DNA from: an uncultured Bacilli bacterium
GTDB taxonomy: Bacteria; Bacillota_I; Bacilli_A; RF39; UBA660
Direction of reading: 5' to 3'
DNA length: 64,000 bases
NCBI GenBank assembly: GCA_910586195.1
Contig: CAJUHO010000004.1
Span: forward strand, 9,295-73,294
Shown: piece by piece, positions 24,930 to 43,577 of the stretch
Layout: each line of letters starts with the position of its first letter
Position numbering within the stretch: position 1 is the first letter of the stretch
Position numbers and translations under genes: made by a program
Notes under the pieces: generated by a model
Databases searched by the model: none
Told to the model about the DNA's origin: nothing
The model's input: only the letters and a program-made list of their open reading frames with translations

Positions 24930-24974
24930 CCATAAATATTGCTATTTTACTATATTTTATCACTTGACTGTATT

Positions 24975-25125
24975 TAGTCAATAAACTAAATTGTATTTTT
25001 TTAGTAGTCGAATAGTAAACTAGATTGACTTTAAACAGTAAACTAAATCGTATTCAAATCGTACGCGAATAGTACAGTACACTAAATTGTATTTGGATAA
25101 TAATATCTTAAACTAATCGCTTACA
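24975..25125. repeat. cluster of five degenerate 15-16 bp direct repeats (TAAACTAAATYGTATT) plus GAATAGTA repeats; iteron-like
   Basis: Copies at 24983, 25017, 25039, 25081 and 25109 with irregular 22-42 bp spacing, in the non-coding region between the helicase stop and the terminator. Confidence 0.5.
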
Positions 25126-25217
25126 TTTTTACAGGGTACTTATTGTAGAGTAATTTCTAAACTTTTATATTATTTTGTAACCAAACGATTTCGTAATTTA
25201 ATTTTCAGTATAAATAG

Positions 25218-27944
25218 CTATTCTGATTTAATTATTTTTTGATTTAATATAGCTAAATCTCTATTACAATCTTTTTTATCAAAACTATCAAATATTTTCT
25301 CTTGACTATCAGCACTCCAATAAACTTTTAAATTTTTTTTAGCTCTAGTAATAGCAGTATAAAAGATGTTTTTTGTTATTCTATCATCAATATTTGAAGT
25401 TATTACTACTTTGACGCTCTCGTACTCAAGACCTTGAGCTTTATGAATAGATATAGCATAAGAAAGATTAAAAGGAATTATATGTGCATATTCGTTTTCA
25501 TCATCATCCTTATCTCGAAATTCATTTACTTTAAATCTAACAATTATTTTATCTTCTTTGTCACTTTCTAGCAATTCTACATCATATGGTGCAAACATTT
25601 AATTTATAGATTTTTTATCAACCTCTATTGAAAACCACATCGCATCTTCATCTTCTTCTATATTTTTAATAATTCCTTTTAAATTATTATGAAGAAATCC
25701 ATTAAATCTTGGACAGTCATTAAATAAAACATAATCATCAACTTTAAAAGTATCCACACCAAAATTATATTCTTTATTTTGATTTGAGCTTTGCATAACT
25801 TTATTTATATTATTAATTCCATACATGCCATCATAATTTAAACATAAAATGATTTCATCATCAAAAGTTTTTTCAAATATATTTTTAGATACTTTTTCTG
25901 AATATTCTTTACTTCCCATTATTGAAATAGCTTTTTTATCATTGACTCTAACACACTTCCATAATTCTAACAAGTCTTTATCAGATGTTCTATGTGTCAT
26001 TTCTAATTCAAAAGACACTCCGTTTTTAAAATACTTACTACATATTTGAAACCAATTACCATATTGGATAGATTCTATTTGATATATATCTCCAACCATT
26101 ACAATAGCATTATAATTACCTTTTTCTAAAATATTTAACATATCTTTATTGCTGACCATACTACATTCATCTATTATTAATAAATCACAGTTTCCATTAT
26201 AATTTTTTTGATAATTCTTAATTGTCATTATTTTTAGTTTATCATTTTCTTGTAATCTTGATTTTAAATTTGTTACAGCGGTATTAGTATTCGAAATTAA
26301 ACATACATTGTAATACTCAAAAACATTAGATAATAATTCTATCATTTTAGTTTTGCCAGTACCTGCTGGCCCATATATAAAAGCAATTGAAGAAGTTTTA
26401 AAAATATCATTTAAAATATTAACTTTATCTTCTGATATTGATTCACTACATAGACAATCTTTATAGAATGTTACTATAGAATTTAAAATACTATTAACTT
26501 CACTAGCTTTTTCTTCTAATTTTTTTATAATTTGAACAGAATTTTTTTCATAATCTTTAATATAAAGAAAACCCTTATCTAAAACTAGTATACTGTCTGT
26601 ATTTTTTAATCTTGATTTAATTTTATTATTAAATTTTTCTACTAACTTTGGAATATCATCAAAATAGCCTATTTCATTAACTGGAGTATATAGCTCATCA
26701 TTATTCTCTGTGTTGTTTTTGATATAAGAATATAATAATTCATCATCTCTTTCAGTTATTTCAACAGATTTAATTAAATCATGAAATTTTGGATTATGAT
26801 TATGAAGAGACATCGCATATGGCATAGCATCGAACAATCCACTCTTTTTATGAATGTACAAGTTACTTAAATATGGGTGTAGTGTTTCTCCTATTTGATC
26901 TCTAATAACTGTATTTATCATCCTTGTTGTTAGGTACCTTATTATATTACAACCAGGCTTATTATTAACAATTATTTCTCTCATTTTTTCTAACATTGAA
27001 CTGATATGATGATTATCTGCACCATTTCTAATATTTTCTATAATTATTTTAAAATCATAATCATTAGAACACAGAATATTATTTATAGTGCATTCATTAT
27101 CACTTAGATAATCCATCAAATTACGATACTCTTTATAGTTTTCATCAAAGTTTTTAGTTTCTCCCATTATCTTGAAAAGATTTTTTAATTCACAAGTTCT
27201 AATAGCAGTTTTGCATGAAGTAATTACTTTAATTTTTACTTTACCTACATTTAAGTCAATAACATCATCCACCGAAGTTATATTAATAGAGTAATTATCT
27301 GGAATATAAATTTTAGAATAAAATGTTAATCTTTCAAATTTATTATTATAATCTGTCGCTTTTGATAAAGTTATCTCATAATATATATTTCCTTTTGAAA
27401 AAATAGTATTACTCTTTTCAACATAAAATTTTCCTTTTATTGTTTTTTTATTTTTTTGATTTATATGTTCAATCCTATCACAAATAATATCATAGTTTTC
27501 CTTCATTGACTTATCATCATATACTGGAAATAAATCAATATTGTTAATTATTTTTAAATCAAATTCTTCTTTTAATAATTTTTTAATTAAGCAGATGTAT
27601 CTATAATAATATTTTACCAGTCTTTCTGCACTATCCTCATTAGGTGTATAATGAGAAGCTGTTCCTTGTAGATAATTATGAAAATCACATAAAAATTTAT
27701 ATTGCTTCTTACCTTTTATAGCATCAAATGAAGAATTTACATTATCATAATGTGTATCTAACTCTAAATTATTAATTTTGTTATTAAGTAGTATAGCAAC
27801 ATCTTCTACTAAATTTCTCAATTGAGATAAAATATTTTCTGAAAGAAATCCTTTATCTTTAAGTTTTGTATCATAATAATAAATATTTTTATCTATAACT
27901 TTTGAAATATAGGATATTTCCTTTTCTGGCGATATTCTAGACAT
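25218..27944 (-). pseudogene. SF1 (RecD/AAA_30-UvrD_C_2-like) helicase with about 480-aa N-terminal unknown domain, interrupted by a single in-frame TAA (781 aa plus 126 aa in the same frame)
   Basis: Walker A GPAGTGKT, Walker B LLIIDECSMV, GDIYQ motif; motif VI IHKAQGLEYESV lies in the downstream 126-aa ORF, which starts with ATG immediately after the TAA in the same frame. Confidence 0.65.
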
Positions 27945-28003
27945 TACTCCACTTCCTTAATGCAATCTATAACACTTTCTATAATTTTAATTATTTCAAT
28001 ATT

Positions 28004-29452
28004 TTACTTTTCTTTTGTATTTATAATTTTTTCTATATCATCACAAAGAGGTAATAATTGTTCTAACTTATCTACTATTCTTTGTTGTTCTTCTATTGGT
28101 GGTAATGGAATAAGCAAATTGTTTAAACTTTTTGAATTTAATGTAGTTCCTTTAATTGCACTTTTACTATCACCATATTTAGTCATAAATGGTAATATTT
28201 TAAATAAATATTGTTTTAAGATTTCAAAATCATAATTAGGATATATTGAAATTATTCCTTCATTGTGAAAAGCATCTATTTTTAAAATCGAACATCTTCC
28301 AACTGTCAGTTTAAAACTCATTAATAAAGTACCTTTTTCAGAAAATTTTTCTTTAAACACTTCCTTATATGCTTTTTCTGATACATATTCTTTTGTGTTA
28401 TCAATAAAACCATTTTCCACCATATCAGAAATTGATACCCAATGATATTCATCTTTGCTCCAATAACTAGAATCGCTCCTAGGTGGAGTTTTACCGATAT
28501 TAAAAGAAACAAGCTCTCCCAATTTTATCCATACCCAATTATTAGGTAACTCAAATGGATAATTATCAATACTGGTTACCTTTTTACCAAGTTTGGTTTC
28601 TATTTCTTCTAAAACATCAAGAGTATTTTCGCTATTTTTTTGATTTGTTAATTTTCCAGATACAGCACTTTGAATTAAAGATTTCCTTAAATCTTTTGGA
28701 AAATCTATTTTCAATTTTTTAATATCTTCTTCTATTGGTTTCAATTCATTGAGTTTTGCAAATAACTCTTCTATTTTATCTACTATTCTTTGTTGTTCCT
28801 CTATTGGTGGAATCGGAATATAAAAATTTCTTAAGTAATTTAAAGAAACAAATTGCTGAACTCCACCAGAACTTTCTTTTTTCATCTTTTCTTGCGAAAA
28901 ATATAAATAATAATACAAAAATTGATTGTCTATACAATCTTTGATTGGATTTTTTAAAAGTGCAACATTTTTTATGCAAAAATCTTTTTCGGTTTTTATA
29001 ATTACCGGGTTTCCTATACTGCCTATCATTGCAAATAATATATCATCATTTTCCACTTTAGATCTAATATTTATACTTTTAGCATCTTCATCAGAAATGT
29101 ATTTAACATTACTCATATCTAATGTCCCATCAATATTAAGGTTTTTACTTGTGACTAATGGGACTCCATCTTTATAATATTTTGGACTATCATGAGTTCC
29201 ATCTCTAACATCAATTGCGTAATATAACTTAGTCCATATCCAAGTTGACGGTATTGTATATGGATAATTTTTTTTAATTGGTTTTGAAACTTTTTTATCT
29301 GCTTTTATTACTTTATTTTCAATTAATTTATTATGATTCGCCTCTATTTTTTTTTCAATAATATTTATATTGGTATCTGTCAAAATCGTTTTACTTAATT
29401 TACCACTAAAAGCATAATTCAATATCGATACTTTTAACTCATCTACTATCAT
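28004..29452 (-). CDS. hsdS: type I restriction-modification specificity subunit (two TRDs)
   Basis: Two target-recognition domains separated by conserved central and C-terminal repeats (PIPPIEEQQRIVDK occurs twice). Confidence 0.85.
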   Translation of the reverse strand: MIVDELKVSILNYAFSGKLSKTILTDTNINIIEKKIEANHNKLIENKVIKADKKVSKPIKKNYPYTIPSTWIWTKLYYAIDVRDGTHDSPKYYKDGVPLVTSKNLNIDGTLDMSNVKYISDEDAKSINIRSKVENDDILFAMIGSIGNPVIIKTEKDFCIKNVALLKNPIKDCIDNQFLYYYLYFSQEKMKKESSGGVQQFVSLNYLRNFYIPIPPIEEQQRIVDKIEELFAKLNELKPIEEDIKKLKIDFPKDLRKSLIQSAVSGKLTNQKNSENTLDVLEEIETKLGKKVTSIDNYPFELPNNWVWIKLGELVSFNIGKTPPRSDSSYWSKDEYHWVSISDMVENGFIDNTKEYVSEKAYKEVFKEKFSEKGTLLMSFKLTVGRCSILKIDAFHNEGIISIYPNYDFEILKQYLFKILPFMTKYGDSKSAIKGTTLNSKSLNNLLIPLPPIEEQQRIVDKLEQLLPLCDDIEKIINTKEK

Positions 29453-30936
29453 TTTATATCACCGATTAATTTAATAATTTCTTGCAGTTTTATATCAAGT
29501 TCTTTTTCTAATTTTTCTCTTTTCTCGATAAAATTATCCATAGTTTCTTTTGGTGATAAAATAACTTCTTCTTTAACTGGAAAACCACATTGATCTAAAT
29601 TATAATTTAATTTTTCTATTTCACTAACAATAAATTTTTTTGATTTCCAAGTTTCAGTTAAAGATTCATCTTCTTTTATGTCTTTAATTTCCTCGCGATT
29701 ATTCCACCAATCGATAACTGGTTGTAAATGTTTTAATTCTACTGGTTTAGTTTTACTAAATGCTTTATAACCATCTGGCATATCCATTCTATAAAACCAT
29801 ATTTCATCAGTCTTTTTGGTTTTATCAAAGAATAAAAGATTAGTTGCTATACTTGTATATGGTGCAAAAATTGATCCTGGAAGCCTTATAATAGTATGTA
29901 AATTGCACTCTTCAATTAATTTTTTCTTAATTGCTATTTTAGTATTATCATTTCCAAATAAGAATCCATCTGGTAACACTATTCCTACTCTACCATTATG
30001 TTTTAATCTATAAAATATCTCTACCATAAATAAATCCGCTGTTTCTGAATTCCTTAAATCTGCTGGAAAGTTTTGCTGAATTGCTTTTTTTTCTGTTCCA
30101 CCATAAGGGGGATTCATTAAAATTACATCAAACTTATCTTGTTCTTCATAATCTCTTACATTTGCTTCAAGAGAATTACCTCTAATAATTTTTGACTCAT
30201 TTATATCATGAAGTAGCATATTAGTTACACATAATAGGTAAGGTAAAGATTTCTTTTCAACTCCGTAAAAAGAATTGTTTAATATTTCATTATCATTGGC
30301 ATCTTCAACACTTTCTTTCATGTAATTAAGAGCAGATACTAGGAATCCTCCAGTACCACAAGCAAAGTCGGCCACTGTTTCGCCAATTTTTGGTTCAACC
30401 ATTTTAACTATAAAATCTGTAAGTGCCCTTGGTGTATAAAACTCCCCAGATTTACCAGCACTTTGTAATTCTTTAAGAATAGTTTCATATATTTCATTAA
30501 ATGCATGTCTTACTTTAAAGTCAGTTAAATCAATTTCATTTAAAATATTAACTACTTGCCTTATTAAAACTCCATCTTTCATATAGTTATTTAAGTCTGT
30601 AAATACTTCTTTTACTAGTCTTCCTCTAGTATCAGTATTCTCATCAACTTCTAAATCTTTTAAATGAACGAATAATTGAGTAATAAAAGATTCCATTTCA
30701 CCACCAGTAATGGCTTTCCCATCTTTCTTATCAATAGCCCAATTTCTCCATCTATATTCTTCTGGAATTATTGAAGTATAATTATCTTCATAAATTTCCC
30801 ACTCTGATTCTTTAGCATCATAAAGTTTTAAGAATAACATCCATACTATTTGTTCAATTCTTTGAGCATCACCATTAATTCCAGCATCCTGTCTCATTAT
30901 ATCTTGTAGTCTTTTTATCATTGTGCTTATATTCAT
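29449..30936 (-). CDS. hsdM: type I restriction-modification N6-adenine DNA methyltransferase subunit
   Basis: FxGxG SAM-binding FACGTGGFL; catalytic NPPYGG; overlaps hsdS by 4 nt. Confidence 0.9.
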   Translation of the reverse strand: MNISTMIKRLQDIMRQDAGINGDAQRIEQIVWMLFLKLYDAKESEWEIYEDNYTSIIPEEYRWRNWAIDKKDGKAITGGEMESFITQLFVHLKDLEVDENTDTRGRLVKEVFTDLNNYMKDGVLIRQVVNILNEIDLTDFKVRHAFNEIYETILKELQSAGKSGEFYTPRALTDFIVKMVEPKIGETVADFACGTGGFLVSALNYMKESVEDANDNEILNNSFYGVEKKSLPYLLCVTNMLLHDINESKIIRGNSLEANVRDYEEQDKFDVILMNPPYGGTEKKAIQQNFPADLRNSETADLFMVEIFYRLKHNGRVGIVLPDGFLFGNDNTKIAIKKKLIEECNLHTIIRLPGSIFAPYTSIATNLLFFDKTKKTDEIWFYRMDMPDGYKAFSKTKPVELKHLQPVIDWWNNREEIKDIKEDESLTETWKSKKFIVSEIEKLNYNLDQCGFPVKEEVILSPKETMDNFIEKREKLEKELDIKLQEIIKLIGDIK

Positions 30937-30947
30937 AATTTACCCTC

Positions 30948-33284
30948 CTATCCGTATAATTTTGTTTTAATCATATTAATCATGCTATTATATTTTTCTT
31001 TTCCACCAAAGATATTATTAACTATTTGTACTAAACCACCAAACTTATTAAAGTTTTTAACATTTAATGTTTTAATATTTTCAAGTTCGGTTACTCCGTT
31101 ATTTCTATAAGTATTTAATAATTCTTCTACAACTTCTTTTTGCTTTTCTGTATAAATATTCATTTCTTCTGATTCTATTACTTTTTGTATTCTATCTTCT
31201 TTAGAAACAAAGTCTATATCATAAGCAACATTACTTAACAAATCAAATTCATCAACATTTGTGTCATTAAGTTGTTCGAGTAATGCATCAACCATAATAC
31301 CCTCACTTGATAAATAATCTAAAAATTCTTGTTTTGATTCCGCTCTAAACCAACTTTGAACGAATCCGTCATGATTTTCATATAATCTTTTCAATTGCTT
31401 TTTTGAATACTCTGCAATAGATTCTGTTATTAATTTTCCATCAGCATCATAGTACTTAACAGTTTCCTCAATTATAGAAACATCGACACCCTTTATATAT
31501 ACCTTTTTTGACTCGCCATCTAATATATCACCACTAAGAGGTTTTGCTGGTTTAGGTTCTGGTACACCATAATCTACAGGTAATATATCTTTATCACCAT
31601 TTCCACCTTCAACTGTTAAAACCATTTCTGCTGGTCCATTAAATGATGGATCAGCAAACTTTTCAGAGTTATTTCTAAAGTCCATTATAGTAAAATATTC
31701 TTTTCCTTTGTTTGGAAGCAATCTTGTACCACGGCCTATAATTTGCTTAAACTCTGTCATGCTTGCTATTTCTTCATCTAAAACTATTAATTTAACTGTT
31801 TTAGTATCTACTCCAGTTGATAACAGTTTAGAAGTAGTTGCTATTACTGGATAATCAGTATTGGCATCAGTAAAATTTTCTAATTGTCTTTTTCCTATAT
31901 CATCATTACCAGTAATTCTTACTACATAATTTGGATTAATTTTAACCATATCAGTATTTTCATTTACTAATGCATTACGCATTCTTAATGCGTGTTCTGT
32001 ATCTACGCAAAATACAATTGTCTTTGCCATACGGTCTGTTGCTTTTAAAAATTCTGTAATTCTTTTTGCTACTACTTTAGTTCTTTCATCTATAACAATA
32101 GTTCTATCATAATCTGAAATTGTATATTCTCTATCTTCAACTTCATATCCCTCTTCATCAAGTTTACCTTTTTCTGGGCGATATCCCTCTAAATCTCTGT
32201 CTATTCCTACTTTAACAACTTTATATGGAGCTAAAAATCCATCTTCAATACCCTGTTTTAATGAGTAAGTATAAATAGGTTCTCCAAAATAATTAATATT
32301 AGATACATCCTCTGTTTCTTTCGGAGTAGCAGTCATACCTATTTGTATAGCATTATCAAAATAAGTCAATATTTCATGCCAATTGGAATCATCTCTTGCA
32401 CTACTTCTATGACACTCATCTACTATAATTAAATCAAAGAAGTCTTTAGTAAATTGTTTATATATATCCTTATCTTGACTTTTCATTTGATGATATAAAG
32501 ACATATATATTTCAAAAGAAGAATCCATATTTCTATGTTCTATTTTTGTCATAACTTTTTGAAAAGGTTTAAAATCGTTTTGCATAGTTTGATCAATTAA
32601 GATATTACGATCTGCTAAATAAAGTATTTTTTTACAAAATTTAGTTTTATGTAATCTATGTATTATTTGAAATGCAGTAAATGTTTTACCTGTACCAGTA
32701 GCCATTACTAACAAAAGTCTTTTTCTACCTTTAGAAATGGCTTCAATAGTTTTATTAATAGCAACCCTTTGATAATATCTTGGAGTTTTATTAATATCTA
32801 AAAAGTAATAAGGTTCTGTAATAAGCTTTTCTTGTTCTTCATCAATATTTTTTTCTTTTAAATATCTTTGCCATAATTCTTTTGGAGTTGGGAACTCATT
32901 TATTCCAATCTCTTTTTCTTCACCAGTAATCATATTGTGTTCGTAAAAGCCATCACCATTAGAAGAATAAGCAAAAGGAATATCTAAATCATTTGCATAA
33001 TCCATTGCTTGTTGAATACCATGTGATACTGTTACTTTATTATCTTTTGCTTCAACTATAGCAATGGGTAAATTAGATTTATATGATAATAAATAATCCA
33101 CTTTTTTACCTTTACTTCTTTGTGCCACATTTTCTCTAACATTTATCTTACCAGCAGTATAATAATACTCACATCTGATTTGACTTTTAATATCCCAGTC
33201 TGCTTTTTGTAAAGCAGGAGTTATATATTTTAACTTAATATCTTCTTCCGTTAAATCCTTTTTAGTTAATCCTGCAAAATCCAT
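30948..33284 (-). CDS. hsdR: type I restriction enzyme R (restriction/translocase) subunit
   Basis: HsdR_N-type N-terminus (ITPALQKADWD); helicase motifs MATGTGKT and IIVDECHRS; 778 aa. Confidence 0.85.
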   Translation of the reverse strand: MDFAGLTKKDLTEEDIKLKYITPALQKADWDIKSQIRCEYYYTAGKINVRENVAQRSKGKKVDYLLSYKSNLPIAIVEAKDNKVTVSHGIQQAMDYANDLDIPFAYSSNGDGFYEHNMITGEEKEIGINEFPTPKELWQRYLKEKNIDEEQEKLITEPYYFLDINKTPRYYQRVAINKTIEAISKGRKRLLLVMATGTGKTFTAFQIIHRLHKTKFCKKILYLADRNILIDQTMQNDFKPFQKVMTKIEHRNMDSSFEIYMSLYHQMKSQDKDIYKQFTKDFFDLIIVDECHRSSARDDSNWHEILTYFDNAIQIGMTATPKETEDVSNINYFGEPIYTYSLKQGIEDGFLAPYKVVKVGIDRDLEGYRPEKGKLDEEGYEVEDREYTISDYDRTIVIDERTKVVAKRITEFLKATDRMAKTIVFCVDTEHALRMRNALVNENTDMVKINPNYVVRITGNDDIGKRQLENFTDANTDYPVIATTSKLLSTGVDTKTVKLIVLDEEIASMTEFKQIIGRGTRLLPNKGKEYFTIMDFRNNSEKFADPSFNGPAEMVLTVEGGNGDKDILPVDYGVPEPKPAKPLSGDILDGESKKVYIKGVDVSIIEETVKYYDADGKLITESIAEYSKKQLKRLYENHDGFVQSWFRAESKQEFLDYLSSEGIMVDALLEQLNDTNVDEFDLLSNVAYDIDFVSKEDRIQKVIESEEMNIYTEKQKEVVEELLNTYRNNGVTELENIKTLNVKNFNKFGGLVQIVNNIFGGKEKYNSMINMIKTKLYG

Positions 33285-33352
33285 ATTACCACTCCAAACA
33301 CTTTATATACATAAGTATAGCATAAAATAAACGTTCTTTTAACTGCCATAAC

Positions 33353-33381
33353 GAAAAAAGTAAGATAAATTTTACCTTACT
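33353..33381 (-). terminator. putative terminator after the Fic gene (agtaag...cttact, U6 on minus)
   Basis: 6-bp stem, A6 on + upstream. Confidence 0.35.
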
Positions 33382-33465
33382 ATCTATAACTCTTTTCTTA
33401 TTACTTTACTATTTATTTTTTCTTTGATTTTATTTCCATATACATATGACTTTTTTATCACAAAT

Positions 33466-34302
33466 TTAAAATAATTCTTTAACTATTAAATCTCGCGAAT
33501 GCAAATTATTATTTTTACCTAATAGTAAGTTTTCATAAAATTTAACTAAATAACTACTATCTTCCTTTATATTTAAATAATTATTAAAATAATTACTTCT
33601 AACTAAAGCATTTCTAAAATATACTGATTTATCTTTAAATAGAGTATTATCTACATTATAGCCTAAACTAATTAAATATTTTTCTATAAATAATACTGTT
33701 GTTCTAGTATTACCTTCTCTAAAAGGGTGTACTTGCCATATATTAGAAGAAAATTTAGTTATATTATTAATAACTTCAACTATATTCATTTCTTTATAAT
33801 TTTTTTCTTTTTCTAAAGATATATCATATTCTAATGATTCAGTTAAGGTATTACAATCACCATATGCTACTGAATCATTATTTAATATCTTTTCATGTTT
33901 AGAAAAATCTATTTTTCTAAATTCGCCAGCAAATTCATAGACATCTTGAAATAAAAACTTATGAACATATTTTAAATAATCAACTGATAATTCAAATTTG
34001 TTTTCTTGTAATAATTCAACTATTCTAGCAGATACAAAATCACATTCTAATTCATTATGATTTATTTCATTTTTATTTTCTTTTTCAATATAATATTCTT
34101 TTAATTCTTTTTTCACTTCTTCAATAGTTAAATTACCCTCTACATTTTCCTCTAATAGTTTTTCTAAATATTTAGAAGGTTTTAAATTATCTACTTCTTG
34201 AAGACCAATAGCCATATCCCATTGTAAATGTTTTACATAATTACTAGATTTATATTCTTCTTCATATTCATTAACACTTGAATCTAATTCTTTTTCACTC
34301 AT
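33466..34302 (-). CDS. Fic/DOC family protein
   Basis: Fic motif HPFREGNTRTTVLF, a variant of the HxFx(D/E)GNGRxxR consensus; 278 aa. Confidence 0.75.
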   Translation of the reverse strand: MSEKELDSSVNEYEEEYKSSNYVKHLQWDMAIGLQEVDNLKPSKYLEKLLEENVEGNLTIEEVKKELKEYYIEKENKNEINHNELECDFVSARIVELLQENKFELSVDYLKYVHKFLFQDVYEFAGEFRKIDFSKHEKILNNDSVAYGDCNTLTESLEYDISLEKEKNYKEMNIVEVINNITKFSSNIWQVHPFREGNTRTTVLFIEKYLISLGYNVDNTLFKDKSVYFRNALVRSNYFNNYLNIKEDSSYLVKFYENLLLGKNNNLHSRDLIVKELF

Positions 34303-34376
34303 AATTTAAACCTCCTAACTATTACTAGTATAACATATAAATTGAAGTTTTAGTTTATTATTAATCTCATTATAAA

Positions 34377-36431
34377 CTAATAGTTTATACTTTGCTCGAT
34401 AACTGTAGCTAATGATCTTAATTTAAATACTGACTTTTTTACTTCATATAATAAATACATTGTATTTTCAGGTAAACGATTTTTATCAATTGCACGTAAT
34501 ATTCCAACTTCTTCACTAGAAAGAGTTTTAAATATATTAAGCAATTCTTCTAAAGATGGTGAAACATTTGTATCTCTTAATAGCAAAAACAAATCGCGTG
34601 GTGATAAAGCTCCTAGTTGCTCCTGCTCCTTGTAAAATTTTGCAATCACATTGTTGATGATTTCTAATTCTCTTTGCTTTGTTGATATAGTTTCAGTAAG
34701 TTGTGAAAAACCATTAGGCACTTGAAAAATCAAAGATATTTCTTGCAGACTTAATCCATATTTAATTGTTGATTTAGCCACTTCAATCAATTGCTCTACT
34801 GTAATTAATGAAAATTTCTTTTTTCTAGCATGATTTATTATAGTATCTCCACTAAAATGAGGTCCAACTATTGCTACATAATCAGCACTATTTTTATCTT
34901 TATGGGTATCTATTGCTACATCGCTTATATCACCATGTGAAACTTGACCTCCGGATTTGGATTTTCCATCTATTATTGCTGTAATAATTTTCCCATTATC
35001 ATCCTTCCAATGTACAACAACATCTGTATCTCCTGGTCCACCAATTTTCTTTGTTTCAAAGCCCATAAAAGTCATCATTTCAGCAATTGATTCCTCAAAG
35101 GCAACTCCTACTGGTTTCCCTTCAGCATTTGGATTTTTGGAAGTATTATCTAAGCGATTAGCAATGATAGAAAGATAATCTTCAAAATTATTATCTAAAT
35201 ACCCACTATCTTTATTATTCTCTTCTTTTTTTTCAAGCTGTTCCATATTTAATAATGGTAAATCAGACACAAAACATATTCCTAGTGGTGTTGCTTTTAA
35301 ATGCAGATATTGTGGTTCTTCTAAAAGACCTGCTTCAATCAAAAATCCTGCTATCCATCTAGCCTTTTCTTGATTAAGGCCATACAATTTAGCTTGCGCA
35401 TATACATCATTACGAATTATATCGTTTTCAGCATACTTTATCATTTCACCTACAAATCTCATATGTGAATGAAGAATTCTAATAAAATCTAAATCATTTC
35501 CCGTTTCAATCCATGATTTAGCAGTAGCGGTTGCTACATATATATTTCGACCAACCTCTTCAATAAAACCTGCTACTTTTAAAAAAGGTAACATTGATTC
35601 AACACTACTTAATTTAAGATTAAATTCTTTACATATAAAGTCAAAAAATTTATTTCTAGTAATTTTCTCAGTTGCATATTGAACTATTATTCGTAAATTT
35701 TCTATTCTATTTGGGCTAGGTGCCCATATATTATATGTACTTCTCTTATTATGTAATTCTGGTGAAACCATTAAATTATTAAGTAATATAGCAATATCTT
35801 CAGGTGGAGCGGAAATTTCCAATTCATTTAAATCAAAATCCATTGGTTCTAAAATTTCAGAAGGGATTAAGTCCCATTCATTTAATACTTTTATACCATT
35901 ATCAGTTACTTTCCATTTTCGATTGCCAATTTCCTGTATTAAGTCTAAGACCTCAAGCCAATCCATCCTTCTTCTAATATTACTTAGGTGATTCCACTTT
36001 AAATCATAATCCTTACATATTGACTTATTAACCTGTTCTACTGTAGCAGGTTCTAATGCAATCAGATTTAATACCTCTCCAAATAAACGTATCTTTTCAT
36101 TAATAATATTAGCAAGCTGCTTTTTTGTTAAATTGTTTAAAAACTCATTCCCTTTCTCTGTTAAACATAATACTCCTGCTTGGTTACTTACAAGTCCAAT
36201 ACCTTTTAAAAAAGGCATGTACTCTCTCCATGGCAGTAGCTGATTAATTTCAAGTATATTTGGTATAGTATTCAAATCATTTGCCTTGTTCTCACCTACT
36301 AGTATAATAAGATTTTTAACCAAAACGAACCAATTAGTTTTACCGCCTCTTAAATCAGGAATCGACCAACTTTTTCTTCGCCATTCATTTCTTTTTTTAT
36401 CTAATTCTTGTCTATTAATAACCTCACTCAT
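34377..36431 (-). CDS. 684-aa protein with C-terminal Mrr-cat-like (PD-(D/E)xK restriction endonuclease) domain and large N-terminal winged-helix-like region
   Basis: FMGFETKKIGGPGDTDVVVHW...AIIDGKSKSG...DYVAIVGPHFSGDTIINHARKKKFSLITVEQLIE matches the Mrr catalytic core (GDGGID / QCK motifs). Confidence 0.55.
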   Translation of the reverse strand: MSEVINRQELDKKRNEWRRKSWSIPDLRGGKTNWFVLVKNLIILVGENKANDLNTIPNILEINQLLPWREYMPFLKGIGLVSNQAGVLCLTEKGNEFLNNLTKKQLANIINEKIRLFGEVLNLIALEPATVEQVNKSICKDYDLKWNHLSNIRRRMDWLEVLDLIQEIGNRKWKVTDNGIKVLNEWDLIPSEILEPMDFDLNELEISAPPEDIAILLNNLMVSPELHNKRSTYNIWAPSPNRIENLRIIVQYATEKITRNKFFDFICKEFNLKLSSVESMLPFLKVAGFIEEVGRNIYVATATAKSWIETGNDLDFIRILHSHMRFVGEMIKYAENDIIRNDVYAQAKLYGLNQEKARWIAGFLIEAGLLEEPQYLHLKATPLGICFVSDLPLLNMEQLEKKEENNKDSGYLDNNFEDYLSIIANRLDNTSKNPNAEGKPVGVAFEESIAEMMTFMGFETKKIGGPGDTDVVVHWKDDNGKIITAIIDGKSKSGGQVSHGDISDVAIDTHKDKNSADYVAIVGPHFSGDTIINHARKKKFSLITVEQLIEVAKSTIKYGLSLQEISLIFQVPNGFSQLTETISTKQRELEIINNVIAKFYKEQEQLGALSPRDLFLLLRDTNVSPSLEELLNIFKTLSSEEVGILRAIDKNRLPENTMYLLYEVKKSVFKLRSLATVIEQSINY

Positions 36432-36679
36432 ATTGACACCTCTATTTCAAAAAAATAAGCAGTATCCATCTTAAAAGATTAAATACTGTTATCTTATATA
36501 TAATAACACATTTTTCGACATTTTTTAGTATTTTAAAGTAATTTGTACTTAAAATTCTAAGTTTAAAGCACTTATTATCTTCAAAATATGATTTTTGATT
36601 AAATTACTATAATTTATTTTCATTTAAATACAGCCGTCCTAATACCCTTATAAATTTAATCAATGCAAGAGCTAAGTCC

Positions 36680-36962
36680 CTCCACCTGCATTTATGTGAT
36701 TAGATATTACAATGACATTGGGATCATTTCCATAAGCATCCAATATTCTTCTAACTCTCTCATCCCTATCAACTGTTTCATCACTACCTCTTACAATTGT
36801 GGTTGGTATTCCAAGTTCTTTTAATCGATCATACATATACTGTGCCGCTTTTAAATTTAAATCTTTTTCTTTTAATCCATTTGCTACCGCTCCTGGATCA
36901 CTACCACCATGTCCAGCATCTACCACGATTCCTTTAATCGCTCTATCGTTCATCCTTTTCAC
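36680..36962 (-). pseudogene. N-terminal fragment of the same Amidase_3 gene (MKRMNDRAIKGIVVDAGHGGSDPG...ISNHINAGG), truncated by the island
   Basis: Amidase_3 N-half motifs; reading frame terminates 2 codons into the island DNA (..GGT*). Confidence 0.75.
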
Positions 36963-37061: not shown

Positions 37062-40000
37062 CTACTCAACCATACTCCTACCTTTAAGCTCTGCTTGCTG
37101 TACAATAATCTTTACTACTTCATCCCTTTTTGCCAATGGATAATTACAACGGATTAGCACCTTTTTAATTTCCACTCTCATATGGGCTCTTGCAGACATT
37201 TTAATATCCCAATCTATCGTCATATTACTATTCACTACATTCGTTAACTCCTTCGCCATTTCGACAAGAGACTCATCTACCATTTCTCCCTTTATATCAG
37301 CAGCATAACTTAGCACATCATAAAAAGCTTTTTCTTCCATAGATAAATGATACTTCTCACTAATCTGCGTTTCTTTTTCTATATCATTTTTCAATTTAAT
37401 CATTTTCTCAAATGTCTGTTCAACACATACATCAGAAAGCCGTTCATTATATCTTGTTACGATTTCCTTAAATTGAGAAGAAAATTTCTCCATTAATATA
37501 ATATTAGTAGTACCAATTCGTTCTATATACTCTTTTAACATGTGCTGTAATAGTTCAACTGCAACATTTTTAGAAGACATTTTTTCTAACTTCATCAAAT
37601 CGGCATCATCCATCAGCTTAAGTGAAGTTCTTTTTTGAACAACCCCGATATCATTATTAATTGCGCTTTCTAAAATATTAGCAATATCTTTATTAATCTG
37701 ACTAAGTTCAAAACTTCCACCTTGAATCTTATTCAAAAAAGATCTAACAGAAATCACATACAATATCTCATCCCTATATTGCTTTTCCACACTTCCTGTA
37801 CAAACAGAATACAACCGTTTAATATCATAACTATACTGTAAAAATTTCCTTTTTGTCTCTTCTCTTGCAAGAATAAAGTTAGCACCCCTATTAATCAAAT
37901 CATACCTACCCTGATTACCTAAAAAAGCAAAATTACTATAATCAAAAGCAGAAAAAAGTTCCCTTACTAATTTCAAGTTATCTAAAAGCAATAAAGAGGC
38001 ATTCTCATTATTAATAAACTGTTTTTGATCCCTTACTGTATATATTTCAAAAGCTTCTTCTAACCATTTTTTTAAACCAACATAGTCAACAATTAAGCCG
38101 CCGCTTTTATCTTTATATACTCGATTTACTCTAGCAATAGCCTGCATTAAATTATGAGATTTCATCGGTTTATCAATATACATAGTACCTAAACATGGCA
38201 CATCAAAGCCAGTAAGCCACATATTCACCACAATAGCAATCTTAAAATTTGAATTAGCATCTTTAAATAAAATCTCTAATTCTCTTTTTCTCTTAATAGT
38301 GGAAATCGCATCTTGCATCTCCTTAGAATCATCATTATTAGGAGTCACTATCATATGAACCTTATCTTTATAATCAGGTCTTAGCTCAAGAAACTTTTGA
38401 TACATGATAAAGGCACTTTGCCTAGATGAGGCAACAACCATAGCCTTACCAGCAGTAAAATCTTTTCTATCCTCATAATGACGAATAATATCCTTTACAA
38501 TATTTTCTAATCTATTAGGATTCTCTAAAACCTTCCTTGCCGTCGTCACTAAATGGTAATATTTTCCAATATCTGGAATATCCACCTCTTCCTCTGAGTC
38601 CAAATAGTGATAACAATTATCAATAGCCTCTACTGACTGCTCACTCAAATTACTATCTAGCATCCTTGATTCATATAAAATAGGAAGAGTCGAACCATCC
38701 TCAATTGCTTGAGTCATATCATAAATATCGATAACAGGTCCAAACACTTCAGTCGTTGAATGATCCCCATTTTCAATTGGTGTTCCTGTAAATCCAATAT
38801 AAGTAGCATTGGGAAAAGCATCATGCAAATACTTCGCTGTTCCATATCTCCTAACTGCTTCCATTTTTTGCATATCAAATTTCATTACTGCATCTACACC
38901 ATAATGACTTCGATGTGCCTCATCTGCCACTACTAAAATATCTTCTCTTGTACTTAATAGTCCTGTTGCCTCCTGAAATTTCTGTAATGTTGTAAAAATA
39001 ATGCCGCCAGAATTTCTCTCTGATATTTTATTCTTTAAATCCTGCCTATTTTCAATTTTGATAGGCATTTGCCTTAAAAAATTACTGCATCTACAAAACG
39101 TCTCATATAATTGATTATCCAAATCATTTCGATCTGTCACAACTATAACCGTAGAAGATGAAAGTTTCCTGATCATATTGGCAACATAAAACACCATAGA
39201 AAGACTTTTTCCAGATCCTTGTGTATGCCAAAGTATCCCTGCTCTACCATCCTTAGCATGTAAAGTGCGATCAATTGCTTTCTCTACACCATAATACTGA
39301 TGATAAAAGGAAAGTATTTTATCATCATTACTATACAAAATATAATGATTTAATAAACTTAGTAACACCTTTTTATCAAACATGCCATGTATTAATGACT
39401 CATAAGTATTTCTCTTTACTACCTCATCGTAACACGACGCCTTCTTCCATTCACTAAATCTAGAATAATCATAAGTAATAGTCCCCGCCTTTGCAACTAA
39501 TCCATCTGTAATTACTGAAAACTGATTATAATAAAATAGTTTAGGAATATAATCATTCATATATCCTTTTAGCCTTTGATAGGATTTTTCCAAATTGACA
39601 TTTCCACATGCCATACTTCCCAATTCAAAAACTACAACTGGCATTCCATTTATAAAAATAATAATATCAGGTCTTTTTACACTATGATCCACTATAGTAA
39701 ATTGATCACTAACCAAAAATTCATTATTGTTCACATTATCAAAATCTATAAGTCTAACAGTATGGTACTTTGTCTCTTCATTTATACATTCAGCCACACG
39801 AATACCAGTATGCAAATACTCACTAAATATTTTATTATTATTTAGTAAATTATTTTGATTAAAATCTTTAATAATTCGTACTGCTTCCCTTATCACTTCT
39901 TCAGTTAAATCTTCATTAATTCTAAACAAGGCATCTACCAAGTTTGCTTCTAATATAACGTCAGAGTAATCTCTTGGAATAGACTCTCCAGGCATATAAG

Positions 40001-40070
40001 AATAGCCTAAACTTTTTAAAAATTTAACCGTCAAAATATTTATATCCCTTTCTGTAGGCATTCTTATCAC
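37062..40070 (-). CDS. hsdR: type I restriction enzyme R subunit (second system)
   Basis: 1002 aa; HsdR_N; helicase motifs GSGKSL, VVADEAHRSH, C-terminal domain. Confidence 0.9.
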   Translation of the reverse strand: MIRMPTERDINILTVKFLKSLGYSYMPGESIPRDYSDVILEANLVDALFRINEDLTEEVIREAVRIIKDFNQNNLLNNNKIFSEYLHTGIRVAECINEETKYHTVRLIDFDNVNNNEFLVSDQFTIVDHSVKRPDIIIFINGMPVVVFELGSMACGNVNLEKSYQRLKGYMNDYIPKLFYYNQFSVITDGLVAKAGTITYDYSRFSEWKKASCYDEVVKRNTYESLIHGMFDKKVLLSLLNHYILYSNDDKILSFYHQYYGVEKAIDRTLHAKDGRAGILWHTQGSGKSLSMVFYVANMIRKLSSSTVIVVTDRNDLDNQLYETFCRCSNFLRQMPIKIENRQDLKNKISERNSGGIIFTTLQKFQEATGLLSTREDILVVADEAHRSHYGVDAVMKFDMQKMEAVRRYGTAKYLHDAFPNATYIGFTGTPIENGDHSTTEVFGPVIDIYDMTQAIEDGSTLPILYESRMLDSNLSEQSVEAIDNCYHYLDSEEEVDIPDIGKYYHLVTTARKVLENPNRLENIVKDIIRHYEDRKDFTAGKAMVVASSRQSAFIMYQKFLELRPDYKDKVHMIVTPNNDDSKEMQDAISTIKRKRELEILFKDANSNFKIAIVVNMWLTGFDVPCLGTMYIDKPMKSHNLMQAIARVNRVYKDKSGGLIVDYVGLKKWLEEAFEIYTVRDQKQFINNENASLLLLDNLKLVRELFSAFDYSNFAFLGNQGRYDLINRGANFILAREETKRKFLQYSYDIKRLYSVCTGSVEKQYRDEILYVISVRSFLNKIQGGSFELSQINKDIANILESAINNDIGVVQKRTSLKLMDDADLMKLEKMSSKNVAVELLQHMLKEYIERIGTTNIILMEKFSSQFKEIVTRYNERLSDVCVEQTFEKMIKLKNDIEKETQISEKYHLSMEEKAFYDVLSYAADIKGEMVDESLVEMAKELTNVVNSNMTIDWDIKMSARAHMRVEIKKVLIRCNYPLAKRDEVVKIIVQQAELKGRSMVE

Positions 40071-40117
40071 ACCTCTTTCTATAAGTTAATTATCTATTTC
40101 ATTGTTATAACAAGCAT

Positions 40118-41179
40118 CTAAATCCATGTCAAATCAATTTCGTTACTCATTAATTTAGGTAACAAGGCTTCTCGTAGTTGAAATAACACCTCATTTTCTT
40201 GATTATTTTTCTCTATTTTAGTAAGGATTTTATTAAAAGCATCCTCAACCTTTTCATTTTGCAAAACGGGAATTTGATAATCTTCAATACATCCTTTTGT
40301 TATAAAGTTGATAACAGAACCACGATAATTGGCCGTTAAATCTTTCAGGTTATATTGAATACTAAAATAAAGAAATCCTAAATGCTTTTGATCATAGGGA
40401 ATTAATACATAAGTCCTTTGGTAAGCATCAAATTTTCCTCGATAAAATTTAACATTAAAATCGCCATTTCCAGAAAGCAATATAGCACTAGCATCAAAAC
40501 TATAACTATCTATTTTTAAAGTATTATGGGAACAAGTAAAAAACGGATATTTACCATTCATAACACTATCATTAGCATCACATTTACCAGTAACAACAGG
40601 AAAAAAGTCACTTAATTTTCTAAACTTTTTTATTCCCGCCTCCAAATAATTTTTCTGATATATATTCATACCTATCTCATATAAACTATCATTCATTTGA
40701 TTGTTTAATTCTATTCTTTTATCGATATAAGACATAACCTTAGAAATCTTAATTTGTGTAGTCTCATCATGAAAGTCAAGAATTAAATTTTCTAAATCGC
40801 TTCTATTTACCGCTTCAAACACAGTATTCAATGCCTTCTTCTTTACCTTATCTACATTATTCTTAAGTAAATAATACAAATATTGATTATGACCATTTTT
40901 CATCTTAATAGAAGCAAGTCCCCTACCTATACACAAATCACAAGGTGCCATATTGATATCACCAACAGGCGCTCTAACACTCAATAACACACTGTCCTTT
41001 TTACCAATTTTTGTTGGAGTACTTGTCCACATTTCTATTTTGGGATATTTATTACCAAAAGTCTTCCTTCCCTGCATAAAGGCAAATCCTACCCCAGTCT
41101 GATTATAGGAAGTAGAACTAGGAGACTGTCCCATTACAACATAACACTCATCTTTTAATTTTTTTAACATAATACTCAC
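40118..41179 (-). CDS. hsdS: type I R-M specificity subunit (compact, two TRDs)
   Basis: Central KIDKRIELNNQMNDSL and C-terminal REALLPKLMS conserved repeats flanking two variable TRDs; 353 aa. Confidence 0.8.
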   Translation of the reverse strand: MSIMLKKLKDECYVVMGQSPSSTSYNQTGVGFAFMQGRKTFGNKYPKIEMWTSTPTKIGKKDSVLLSVRAPVGDINMAPCDLCIGRGLASIKMKNGHNQYLYYLLKNNVDKVKKKALNTVFEAVNRSDLENLILDFHDETTQIKISKVMSYIDKRIELNNQMNDSLYEIGMNIYQKNYLEAGIKKFRKLSDFFPVVTGKCDANDSVMNGKYPFFTCSHNTLKIDSYSFDASAILLSGNGDFNVKFYRGKFDAYQRTYVLIPYDQKHLGFLYFSIQYNLKDLTANYRGSVINFITKGCIEDYQIPVLQNEKVEDAFNKILTKIEKNNQENEVLFQLREALLPKLMSNEIDLTWI

Positions 41180-42100
41180 CTACGCAATCATGATAACATC
41201 ATCTATATTAATGTTACCATCCTTATCCAACCGACACTCAATATGAAAGGGCAAATTTTCTTCATCCTTTACCACTTCAATATTAAAACTATAATTATTA
41301 TTACTCTGATCAATTAAATCACTATAATTAACAATAGAATTAACTTCAAAATTGTAATATAGTTTGATTTTTTCATTCACTATATCAAATAATTCTCCAC
41401 TATCTAACAAAGAATCAATATTCGCATCTACTAATAGATAATTAGATTGAATCTGATTAATTTCTAGAAGCCTATTTTGCAGTTCCCCCAATTCATAAAA
41501 AATCTCTATTTTTTTACCTGTTATTCTTTCAAATTCATCGCTCAATTCTTCAGGAAAATCATTTTTATTTTTTGTTAAAAACAAAAACTTCTGACTTGCT
41601 ATTTTACCAGCATACTGTAGCATTGATTCCCATTGTACAGCATCCTTAAAACCCTTATCAGACTCACCATTTTTCCCAGAAAAAGGTTTGTTTTTATAGA
41701 TAGCCCTATCAAGAAGATTATTAAGGGTATCCCGTTCCTTTGGAATTAATACCATATTTATCTTTTCCTGTTCTAGATAATCATTAATTCTTCTATCTAA
41801 TCCCGTTTCAAAGTCCTTTACCTTCTCAGGTTCGTCAATACCATAAAATACCCGGAACTTACTAAGTAATTCCCTATAATTACTATCATCTTCTTCAAAC
41901 TTTTCACAAATCTGACACTTTAATTCCTTCATCACAATTTCAGTAACATTAATATGACATTTATCACTTAAATCATTCGTATTTATAAAATCTATAAATT
42001 CCAAATAATTTCTACCAAATGTAAACATAGAATAATCTTTTATGCTCTTCTCTTTTAAAATACTAGTATCAAAAAATATCTCAATCATTTCCATAGCCAA
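41180..42100 (-). CDS. PIN-like domain protein embedded between hsdM and hsdS
   Basis: N-terminal IFFDTSIL (PIN motif 1 Asp), later acidic positions (VTEIVMKEL; DKGFKDAVQWESML); overlaps hsdM by 20 nt and abuts hsdS. Confidence 0.5.
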   Translation of the reverse strand: MAMEMIEIFFDTSILKEKSIKDYSMFTFGRNYLEFIDFINTNDLSDKCHINVTEIVMKELKCQICEKFEEDDSNYRELLSKFRVFYGIDEPEKVKDFETGLDRRINDYLEQEKINMVLIPKERDTLNNLLDRAIYKNKPFSGKNGESDKGFKDAVQWESMLQYAGKIASQKFLFLTKNKNDFPEELSDEFERITGKKIEIFYELGELQNRLLEINQIQSNYLLVDANIDSLLDSGELFDIVNEKIKLYYNFEVNSIVNYSDLIDQSNNNYSFNIEVVKDEENLPFHIECRLDKDGNINIDDVIMIA

Positions 42101-43577
42101 TATCCCTCAATACTTTCTTCAGTTCTACATCTAGCTGTTGAGCTTCTTCCATTTGAGCTACTAATTTTTCTATTAACTTTGCCATTTTCTCTTCTGAAAA
42201 AGAAGCATCAACTTGAGATTTTTTCATACCAACATACTGGCTTGGATTTAATAAAAAATCTTTTTCCTCTATGTCTAAAAGGGTAGCATCTCTACAAAAT
42301 CCTAAGACATCTTCATAATTCTTAGTGTTCTGATAATCGTGATATGTATTTGCAATTTTCATGATATTTTCGCTAGAAAAATCTCTTAATTTTCTAGTAA
42401 TCATAGAACCTAACCCAGTAGCATCTATAAATAAAGTATGGCCTTTCCGTTTTTTCTTTTTATTTAATATCCAAATAGAGCAAGGAATCGTAACTGAATA
42501 AAACAAATTAGATGGCATTGCAACAATACAGTCCACTAAATCATCTATCACCAATTTACTGCGAATAAAAGCTTCACGCCCACTCGATGTTAAAGCACTA
42601 TTAGGTAAAACAATCGCTGCCCTTCCTACTCCAGACAATTTAGAAATTACATGTTGCAACCAAGCATAATTCGCATTTTTCTTTGGAGGAATTTCATACT
42701 TCCATCTACAATCATTTAACAACAAGTCCTGTCCCCAATCTCCCATATTAAAGGGAGGATTGGCCAATATAAAATCTGCCATTAAACCTTTATGTAAATC
42801 TTCATGGAATGTATCCGCTGCAAATTCTCCTAAGTTCCCCTCTATAGATCGAATGGCCAAGTTCATCTTCGCTAATTTCCAAGTAGTAGGATTTTTTTCT
42901 TGCCCAAAGAAAGAAGCATTTCGGACATTTCCATTATGTTCCTCTATATATTTAACACATTGAATCAACATACCACCAGAGCCACAAGCAGGATCATATA
43001 TTCTTCCTCCCTTTGGTTCAAGCATTTCCACCATCGTTTTAACAATACTGGATGGTGTATAAAATTCTCCTCCCCTTTTTCCATCTTTACTAGCAAATTT
43101 CTCTAAAAAATATTCATATATTTGTCCCAAAGAATCATCATGAGACTCTAAATCTAAATTCGTAAACAAATCTATAATCTCGCCCAAATTTACACTTCTA
43201 AAATCTGGACTATTATATATCTTAAATAGCACTCCTTTAAGGGATGGATTTTCCTTTTCTATTAAATCTAGTGCATTATCTAAAATCTCTCCAATATTGT
43301 AATCTTTAGAATGCTTTACAATATAATCCCATCTCGCATTTTCTGGCACAAAGAAAATACTATCTTCCATATAAGCATCTCTATCTTCTTCTAAACCGTA
43401 CCCATCTTGTACAAGAAATTTATACTTTTTTTCAAAGGTAGAAGAGATATACTTTAAAAAGATCATTTCCAACACTACAAATTTATAATTAGTAATCGAT
43501 AGACCACCAATCATTTTATCTGCTGCAATCCACAATTCTTTCTCTATTTCTTTTATATTTTGTTTCATTTTAAACAC
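42081..43577 (-). CDS. hsdM: type I R-M N6-adenine methyltransferase subunit (second system)
   Basis: HsdM_N; SAM motif DPACGSGGML; catalytic NPPFN. Confidence 0.9.
   Translation of the reverse strand: MFKMKQNIKEIEKELWIAADKMIGGLSITNYKFVVLEMIFLKYISSTFEKKYKFLVQDGYGLEEDRDAYMEDSIFFVPENARWDYIVKHSKDYNIGEILDNALDLIEKENPSLKGVLFKIYNSPDFRSVNLGEIIDLFTNLDLESHDDSLGQIYEYFLEKFASKDGKRGGEFYTPSSIVKTMVEMLEPKGGRIYDPACGSGGMLIQCVKYIEEHNGNVRNASFFGQEKNPTTWKLAKMNLAIRSIEGNLGEFAADTFHEDLHKGLMADFILANPPFNMGDWGQDLLLNDCRWKYEIPPKKNANYAWLQHVISKLSGVGRAAIVLPNSALTSSGREAFIRSKLVIDDLVDCIVAMPSNLFYSVTIPCSIWILNKKKKRKGHTLFIDATGLGSMITRKLRDFSSENIMKIANTYHDYQNTKNYEDVLGFCRDATLLDIEEKDFLLNPSQYVGMKKSQVDASFSEEKMAKLIEKLVAQMEEAQQLDVELKKVLRDIGYGND

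Follow-up and report, generated by a model that had tools for sequence, protein, structure and literature searches.

A predicted type IV-like nuclease with four winged-helix units and a Fic backbone gene lie side by side in a mobile defence island of an uncultured Bacilli bacterium

Several described groups of DNA-cleaving enzymes combine winged-helix (wH) units with a nuclease domain. In EcoKMrr, a protein of ~300 amino acids (aa), a wH unit lies directly before a PD-(D/E)xK domain of the Mrr_cat family, and the gene is solitary, with no methyltransferase. In FokI (1FOK, 2FOK), a recognition module of multiple wH units is followed by a separate PD-(D/E)xK cleavage domain. Stand-alone wH-nuclease fusions are dependent on N6-methyladenine (m6A), lack of an adjacent methyltransferase being the criterion for their prediction (PMC11037411), and a type IIS-like nuclease that comes with no methyltransferase acts against hypermodified phages (PMC12191111). 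Here we analyse a 684-aa nuclease and the 278-aa Fic protein encoded next to it in a 64,000-nucleotide stretch of DNA (the window) from an uncultured Bacilli bacterium (contig CAJUHO010000004.1, assembly GCA_910586195.1). The original prediction for this locus was that the two proteins may form a modification-dependent restriction system or a toxin-effector pair. Our analysis favours, with reasonable though far from full confidence, a reading in which the nuclease is a solitary type IV-like enzyme and the Fic gene belongs to the backbone of a mobile defence island, so that two independent modules happen to stand side by side.

The nuclease gene is an intact open reading frame (ORF) at 34377..36431 on the minus strand, characterised by Pfam matches (HTH_45, Mrr_N, Mrr_cat), AlphaFold modelling and Foldseek. 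The encoded protein consists of an N-terminal helix pair, four wH units, a disordered linker, a Mrr/FokI-type PD-(D/E)xK core and a C-terminal domain. In the AlphaFold model, which has a mean predicted local distance difference test score (pLDDT) of 83.7, the wH units lie at about aa 68-99, 103-185, 242-310 and 313-389, the linker at aa 397-415, the alpha/beta core at aa 443-558 and a helical domain at aa 562-684; modelling aa 1-412 separately gave the same picture (pLDDT 83.4, predicted TM-score 0.65). The N-terminal helices and wH1-wH2 (aa 1-190; 35862..36431, minus strand), delimited from DSSP of the models, HTH_45 and hhalign, form a putative extra sensor module. The following segment (aa 230-395; 35247..35744, minus strand), defined by invariant columns, Mrr_N and homology to a relative, P0385, comprises a TYNIWxPSPNR loop and wH3-wH4, of which wH4 is Mrr_N-like. 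The PD-(D/E)xK core (34758..35105, minus strand) was located by Mrr_cat, alignment and structural matches. Behind it lies a conserved helical C-terminal domain (34380..34748, minus strand), which the family alignment and relatives show to travel with the nuclease core. These results uphold the earlier description of ~430 aa of winged-helix-like sequence before the core and a tail of ~120 aa after it, in a protein far larger than canonical Mrr. The loop between the wH pairs (aa 232-242; 35706..35738) reads TYNIW(A/V)PSPNR, is near-invariant across the family, includes Y233 and W236 and is modelled with lower confidence; it may serve in base binding or as a hinge.

In the window protein itself, HTH_45 matches aa 69-103 (E 1e-10), and both Mrr matches fall under their Pfam cut-offs, Mrr_cat slightly (aa 444-550, 20.4 bits against 21) and Mrr_N more clearly (aa 354-384, a weak 21.9 bits against 29.5). 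Pfam matches across 25 homologues are stronger: Mrr_cat is found in 24 (best E 2.8e-8), Mrr_N in 22 (best E 2.2e-7) and HTH_45 in 21. The FokI cleavage domain PF09254 matched one of the 25 (E 0.0047) in the same scan, and pre-computed FokI_cleav_dom records exist for many homologues. The family alignment (A1) is conserved throughout its length, with a mean column identity of 68%, and E446, D470, D488 and K490 are invariant in it, giving a complete PD-(D/E)xK site. The motifs on which a Mrr-type core near aa 440-560 had been proposed are all present, at aa 464-475 (GGPGDTDVVVHW), 486-492 (IIDGKSK) and 543-550 (ITVEQLIE), in agreement with that proposal.

Foldseek comparison of the whole model with the PDB placed FokI at the top (2fok E 3.3e-8; 1fok E 1.6e-7; 688 aligned columns), followed by the nicking enzyme Nt.BspD6I, SelB wH2-4 and the BpuJI recognition domain. 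Matches to the catalytic domain include the type IV enzymes AspBHI and MspJI, as well as EndoMS. With the N-terminal model alone, the matches were FokI (E 1e-3), BpuJI (probability 1.0), TFIIH p52, SelB and PadR-type regulators, all of them wH arrays. An SRA, YTH or DUF reader domain in the N-terminal region would have pointed to a type IV enzyme, but Foldseek returned no SRA, YTH or PUA fold there, and only wH arrays were found. PDB sequence searches, by single sequence and by profile, yielded no solved structure related by sequence to the nuclease, so the link to FokI is one of fold. PADLOC and NCBIfam gave no more than a weak "REase_II" match and one to an Sso10a-like wH, and the nuclease is absent from the PADLOC catalogue of defence systems.

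Set against the described systems, the protein appears hybrid-like: from its sequence and model it would work most like an enzyme that joins the Mrr-type catalytic domain and solitary genetics of type IV enzymes to the multi-wH module and separate cleavage domain of FokI. It shares with EcoKMrr the wH unit directly before the Mrr_cat domain and the lack of a methyltransferase, but it is more than twice as long, with three more wH units, the helix pair and the 120-aa C-terminal domain. Its catalytic motif is D-G-K, whereas the Mrr catalytic domain is described as PD-QxK (PMC11037411). It shares the FokI layout, yet the global TM-score is only ~0.2, no sequence similarity is detectable, the C-terminal domain is extra and the family has no adjacent methyltransferase in the 78 loci described below. 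It departs both from the size and architecture that define canonical Mrr and from the linked methylase that defines type IIS systems. DpnI, FcyTI and Psp4BI, m6A-dependent enzymes compared here by their published description, resemble it as stand-alone wH-nuclease proteins with no methyltransferase, but they are small and have a single wH, and the PD-(D/E)xK-wH group has the domain order reversed (PMC11037411).

The wH units are related to one another. Residues 70-122 align with 279-332 (hhalign E 5e-5), and one and the same segment of P0385 aligns with both aa 17-190 and aa 230-395; together these results indicate that the N-terminal half is a duplicate of the wH3-wH4 pair. With hhalign we detected no relationship between the C-terminal domain and the wH units. 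P0385 is one of three proteins (with P0351 and P0365; 628-648 aa) that were found among the representatives matching only the C-terminal part of the nuclease profile, and that carry an N-terminal EVE domain (~aa 3-137; E 6.5e-8 to 1.7e-10) in addition to Mrr_cat. Residues 168-634 of P0385 are homologous to nuclease aa 230-681 (BLASTP E 6e-36; hhalign probability 99.8%, E 3.7e-30). The shared part comprises wH3, wH4, the linker, the nuclease core and the C-terminal domain, with P0385 aa 168-337 corresponding to nuclease aa 230-395. The conserved core of the lineage is thus [wH-wH]-[nuclease]-[C-terminal domain], preceded either by an EVE domain or by a second wH pair. The C-terminal domain is also retained in haloarchaeal plasmid relatives, which match only aa 382/445-681.

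EVE domains are established modified-base readers in modification-dependent enzymes. The EVE sister proteins share the sensor-plus-nuclease layout of known EVE/PUA-nuclease enzymes; the window nuclease differs in having a second wH pair and no PUA-type reader. Since an EVE domain, listed among the sensors of modification-dependent enzymes (PMC12191111), takes the place of the first wH pair, this exchange is the strongest indirect argument that the extra pair may be a sensor and the lineage type IV-like. The EVE-bearing subfamily is itself a predicted modification-dependent nuclease that is apparently uncharacterised.

The combination of domains had not been recognised as that of a described system. 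It is no one-off fusion, and is shared, along the whole length of the protein, by a large family. More than 450 relatives were recovered from 5.8 billion proteins, and among the best 120 listed nearly all have the full length, at 670-720 aa. When 1.84 billion cluster representatives (50% clustering) were searched with a profile, 933 matched at E<=1e-3 and 226 at E<=1e-30, and most of the 933 are 630-760 aa long and aligned across nearly the whole profile. Members occur in Bacillota (Lachnospiraceae, Oscillospiraceae, Erysipelotrichales, Bacillus, Lysinibacillus and Listeria-type bacteria) and, at ~40% identity, in Actinomycetota (Streptomyces, Micromonospora, Actinomadura and others). No homologue was found in phage genomes.

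To examine gene neighbourhoods we used 78 loci from one-genome-per-species contigs; a contig scan with the single nuclease sequence found nothing, and an alignment query was needed to recover them. The 145 immediate neighbours in these loci belong to 102 different Pfam families. Among the Pfam families that occur at least twice in these neighbours there is no methyltransferase, and PADLOC gave only a few isolated matches on them. No cluster of flanking ORFs is common to more than 11 loci, and those that are shared encode an ABC ATPase, GMP synthase (guaA) and pyruvate phosphate dikinase (ppdK). Within ±8 kb of the nuclease gene, homologues of the window's HsdM or HsdS were found in none of the 78 loci and an HsdR-like protein gave a single match. 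We also considered whether the host is shielded from the nuclease by the methylation of the adjoining type I system, and rejected this because the adjacency is not conserved in the 78 loci. Distant full-length relatives on plasmids (24% identity) are solitary as well, beside an integrase, Fst toxins or Tn7-like transposition genes, and no methyltransferase adjoins the three that we inspected. The nuclease gene thus behaves as a self-contained unit that inserts at many places.

The Fic gene (33466..34302, minus strand; identified by its ORF, Pfam Fic and PADLOC PDC-S72) follows the nuclease gene. The two had been described as convergent; they are in fact co-directional and in tandem on the minus strand, with the nuclease upstream and a 74-bp spacer between them (34303..34376, minus strand), in which there is no terminator-like site. 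Neither ORF is a chance occurrence, as both are long, intact and conserved across many genomes. They differ widely in abundance, with 90%-identity clusters of 1112 members for Fic and 3 for the nuclease. No Fic homologue lies within ±8 kb of the nuclease gene in any of the 78 loci, and the nuclease homologues of 74% and 69% identity have other neighbours and no Fic. Copies identical to the window keep the nuclease-Fic order, as do three contigs with a nuclease of 88% and a Fic protein of 92% identity; the pair is seen only in this clade, with at least 88% nuclease identity. With the wH unit at aa ~313-390 being Mrr_N-like (22 of 25 homologues) and Fic missing from 78 of 78 loci, we arrive at essentially the two observations that the original prediction had said would speak against it.

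Conversely, exact-sequence look-ups of five Fic variants (88-94% identical) returned 29 loci, none of which contains the 684-aa nuclease. Directly upstream of Fic they carry instead Hachiman (HamA and a DEAD helicase; L097-101), a cluster of a MmeI-like methylase, HATPase_c_3 and two unknown genes (L093-096), Bro-N/DUF2726 (L102-106), an AAA_13 protein with a 320-aa protein (L110-115) or a Gabija-like OLD nuclease with a UvrD helicase (L116-121). The genes downstream vary too, and include two kinds of type I system, C5 methylases with McrBC, HipA together with PIN_12 and a type I system, a C5 methylase beside a MwoI-like gene, and AbiE. DNA similarity between the window and the other Fic loci (L093-L121) runs at 89-93% identity from 34317-34337 to 33465-33470, with nothing beyond. 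The shared DNA is therefore the Fic ORF plus the 15-35 bp upstream of it, including the ribosome-binding site, which makes the last ~15-35 bp of the spacer part of a conserved Fic module. The sharp breaks at both edges suggest that cassettes are exchanged by recombination with Fic as the anchor, or that Fic is a discrete module in its own right.

Both genes lie in an insertion. An intact 450-aa amidase-LysM homologue maps to the window in two pieces (tblastn), aa 2-91 at 36947..36678 and aa 90-450 at 21083..19956, indicating that an insertion of ~15.6 kb (~21084..36677) interrupts the gene at about aa 90-91. The 5' fragment (36672..36962, minus strand; 96 aa) matches positions 1-78 of the 174 in the Pfam Amidase_3 profile, and the 3' part (19800..21083, minus strand; aa 90-450) holds the end of Amidase_3 and six LysM repeats. 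Between them lie the nuclease, Fic, a type I operon, a helicase, an HTH_36 gene (24140..24439), a large serine recombinase at the right end of the element (22129..23790, minus strand; Pfam Resolvase, Recombinase, Zn_ribbon_recom) and DUF5677. The stretch from the HTH_36 gene to the recombinase (25094..22442) is 83% identical to locus L093. At the other end, a conserved 240-bp left-junction intergenic region (36432..36671, minus strand), recognised by its identity to other loci, precedes the first cargo slot and may have a promoter role. Together with the amidase fragment it is 68-78% identical to the stretch before HamA, a GajA-like gene and YobI in other loci; the same fragment and junction precede Hachiman, Gabija, the AAA_13 pair and YobI in related elements.

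The layout of the element is thus amidase 5' part, slot 1, Fic, slot 2, HTH_36, recombinase and amidase 3' part. In the window, slot 1 holds the nuclease and slot 2 the HsdR-HsdM-HsdS operon (28004..33284, minus strand; Pfam), and related elements carry other defence cargo in both. This slot architecture explains the adjacency of nuclease and Fic without a functional link between them. For one exact Fic variant, six different chromosomal genes are seen on the upstream side of the amidase fragment, from which we infer an element that passes from host to host and has the same target gene in each. Short 5' fragments of the amidase (88-133 aa) recur directly before defence cargo, sometimes more than one per contig (L091 7529..7930; L093 847..1140; L097 3347..3622; L103 8897..9175; L110-L121 near 1720..2733), a pattern that fits repeated or tandem insertion into one target.

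Read along the minus strand, the region runs from a type I operon with an embedded PIN_12 gene through the amidase fragment, the 240-bp spacer, the nuclease, Fic, HsdR-HsdM-HsdS, the helicase, HTH_36, the serine recombinase and DUF5677 to the LysM protein. The first of these, one of two type I restriction operons beside the nuclease, lies on the upstream side (37062..43577, minus strand). Its PIN_12 gene (41180..42100, minus strand) sits between hsdM and hsdS, a layout that recalls the PrrC anticodon nuclease embedded in a type I operon. In L116, L118, L119 and L121, PIN_12 is again found next to a type I system, downstream of Fic-HipA, and DUF4145 holds the same position in L097-101. The helicase, of the AAA_30 type in superfamily 1 (25218..27944, minus strand), consists of two abutting ORFs of 781 and 126 aa, the latter with UvrD_C_2. 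It may be a split or decaying gene; L080 keeps only a 191-aa remnant of it. Further upstream of the type I operon lie Abi_2 and trypsin-PDZ (HtrA-like) genes (43716..45756, minus strand); this pair recurs by amidase fragments in L103-L106 and L118 and may belong to the hotspot's conserved flank.

In the mechanism that we propose for the nuclease, the four wH units, as two duplicated pairs, would recognise DNA and the C-terminal Mrr/FokI-type PD-(D/E)xK domain would cut it. By analogy with the FokI layout, the protein probably dimerises before it cuts, and the cut probably falls close to the bound site and not inside it. The most likely trigger would be modified or hypermodified foreign DNA, because the family is not accompanied by a methyltransferase and an EVE reader replaces the first wH pair in the sister subfamily. 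Position also speaks for a role in defence, in that the nuclease here takes the slot that elsewhere holds Hachiman or Gabija. The original suggestion of a modification-dependent system is therefore still the best-supported reading for the nuclease, as a predicted type IV role, and what falls away is its pairing with Fic, which none of the 78 loci repeats. Fic, for its part, is a conserved backbone gene of the ~15.6-kb integrative serine-recombinase element.

A number of observations weigh against this picture. Modification dependence is something that we infer entirely from indirect arguments, and our literature search found no biochemical characterisation of any family member. The closest folds, FokI and BpuJI, are readers of unmodified sequences, and the window nuclease itself carries no known modified-base reader domain. 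Most of its neighbours across species are housekeeping rather than defence genes. Two type I (m6A) systems adjoin the nuclease in its host, and the 69%-identical homologue sits a few kb from two C5 methyltransferases. In the contigs where the nuclease is 88% identical, the spacer to Fic is still 73-74 bp though the genes immediately upstream differ, and co-transcription and some local coupling of the two genes are conceivable. The host m6A systems and the nearby C5 methyltransferases make a broad m6A or 5-methylcytosine trigger unlikely, so that the trigger should be narrower or different; a sequence-restricted or hypermodification trigger fits better.

A more far-reaching version of the proposal, which we offer tentatively and hold to be somewhat less than an even chance, is that the nuclease family and its EVE clade form an unstudied class of type IV enzymes, in which a duplicated wH pair reads a specific modified or hypermodified base in its sequence context and the cut is made at a distance in the manner of FokI. 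In a separate proposal, a serine-recombinase "defence-cassette carrier" would have Fic as its fixed backbone toxin and exchange whole defence systems between two anchors.

The alternative that survives best, though we consider it unlikely, is that the nuclease is a FokI-like type IIS enzyme that cuts an unmodified site, its host being guarded by an unlinked methyltransferase or by the rarity of sites in the genome. The best structural matches of both the whole length and the N-terminus (FokI, Nt.BspD6I and BpuJI) and the pre-computed FokI_cleav_dom matches on many homologues would suit such an enzyme, as would the D...DxK catalytic spacing, which resembles that of D450, D467 and K469 in FokI. 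However, a restriction gene that spreads horizontally with no methylase linked to it is, as a rule, lethal or lost, and this family is intact and full-length in two phyla even though no methyltransferase recurs among its 145 neighbours or adjoins the three plasmid relatives. The modification reader in the EVE sister subfamily also argues against a type IIS enzyme.

The identity of the Fic protein is clear from Pfam Fic (E 1.3e-11) and from PADLOC, where it matches PDC-S72 (E 4e-80; aa 10-276, profile positions 6-271 of 377), PDC-S04 (E 3.5e-33) and, only weakly, SoFic (E 1.4e-4), and the presence of HPFREGNTRT (aa 192-201) accords with its earlier recognition as a Fic-motif protein. Among solved structures, Bartonella Bep proteins and VbhT come nearest to it. 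PDC-S72 is a candidate defence family, to which we liken the window protein by profile match. The motif, HPFREGNTRTTV (33694..33729, minus strand), is non-canonical: relative to the AMPylation consensus HxFx(D/E)GNGRxxR, the second Gly is replaced by Thr and the second Arg by Ala, Val or Thr. Among 134 close homologues the motif was found in 130, all reading HPFREGNTRTT[A/V] or a near variant, which sets the family apart from the consensus. Fic proteins that deviate from it are thought to have other activities; AnkX (HxFxDANGRxxV), for example, is a phosphocholine transferase, and the second Arg binds the ATP gamma-phosphate (PMC3667792). As in class II Fic proteins, a VbhA-like segment precedes the Fic core (aa 31-68), although the match is weak (E 0.21), the segment reads IGLQEV where the inhibitory motif is (S/T)xxxE(G/N), and the would-be inhibitory Glu is Lys or Arg in ~12 of the 134 homologues and thus not strictly conserved. 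With low confidence, we suggest that Fic acts alone, as a self-contained protein for toxin-type defence or stabilisation whose chemistry is not AMPylation.

As a second alternative, Fic could be a guard toxin that backs the neighbouring DNA-targeting defences and fires when a phage inhibits them, as PrrC, an anticodon nuclease, is paired with a type I enzyme. Fic always has a nucleic-acid-targeting cargo directly upstream in the same direction, type I or McrBC genes often follow it directly, and the PIN_12 genes in type I operons of the same islands indicate that such a design is used locally. Nevertheless, we regard a guard role as improbable: its partners (two type I families, C5 methylases with McrBC, HipA, AbiE) are too varied for a specific protein-protein guard and fit a backbone gene better, and PADLOC lists the family as a single-gene candidate.

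Even less probable is that the 684-aa protein is not a defence protein at all, and uses its wH array in DNA repair, transcription regulation or maintenance of the element. Housekeeping neighbours in most species and the occurrence of wH arrays in regulators, SelB and TFIIH would agree with such a role, but the catalytic residues are invariant, the gene has a patchy, insertion-like spread (beside guaA, on plasmids, as Tn7-like cargo), the slot is otherwise filled by Hachiman or Gabija, and the sister clade bears EVE. Weakest of all is the two-gene system itself, a restriction enzyme with a Fic toxin or regulator or a toxin-effector pair, which has in its favour the co-directional tandem without a terminator and the retention of pair and spacer at 88%/92% identity beneath different upstream genes, but which is not supported and is largely refuted by the co-occurrence data: no Fic in the 78 nuclease-family loci or by the 74% and 69% homologues, ~90%-identical Fic after five other kinds of cargo, DNA similarity that ends at the edges of the Fic ORF, and cluster sizes of 1112 and 3.

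The reading of the nuclease as a solitary type IV-like enzyme in an island with a Fic backbone has consequences on two levels. The island is a warning against inferring partnership from adjacency inside defence islands, and its fixed parts (amidase target, Fic and recombinase) with two swappable slots make it a ready catalogue of candidate defence genes. If the nuclease family is modification-dependent, it would be a large and broad addition to the type IV enzymes, with 933 clusters at 50% identity in two phyla and a sensor made solely of wH units; the MspJI and DpnI families provide a precedent for the use of such enzymes as epigenetic tools. Such a type IV-like family would, if the reading is true, shape the entry of modified phages and plasmids into gut Bacillota and Actinomycetota.

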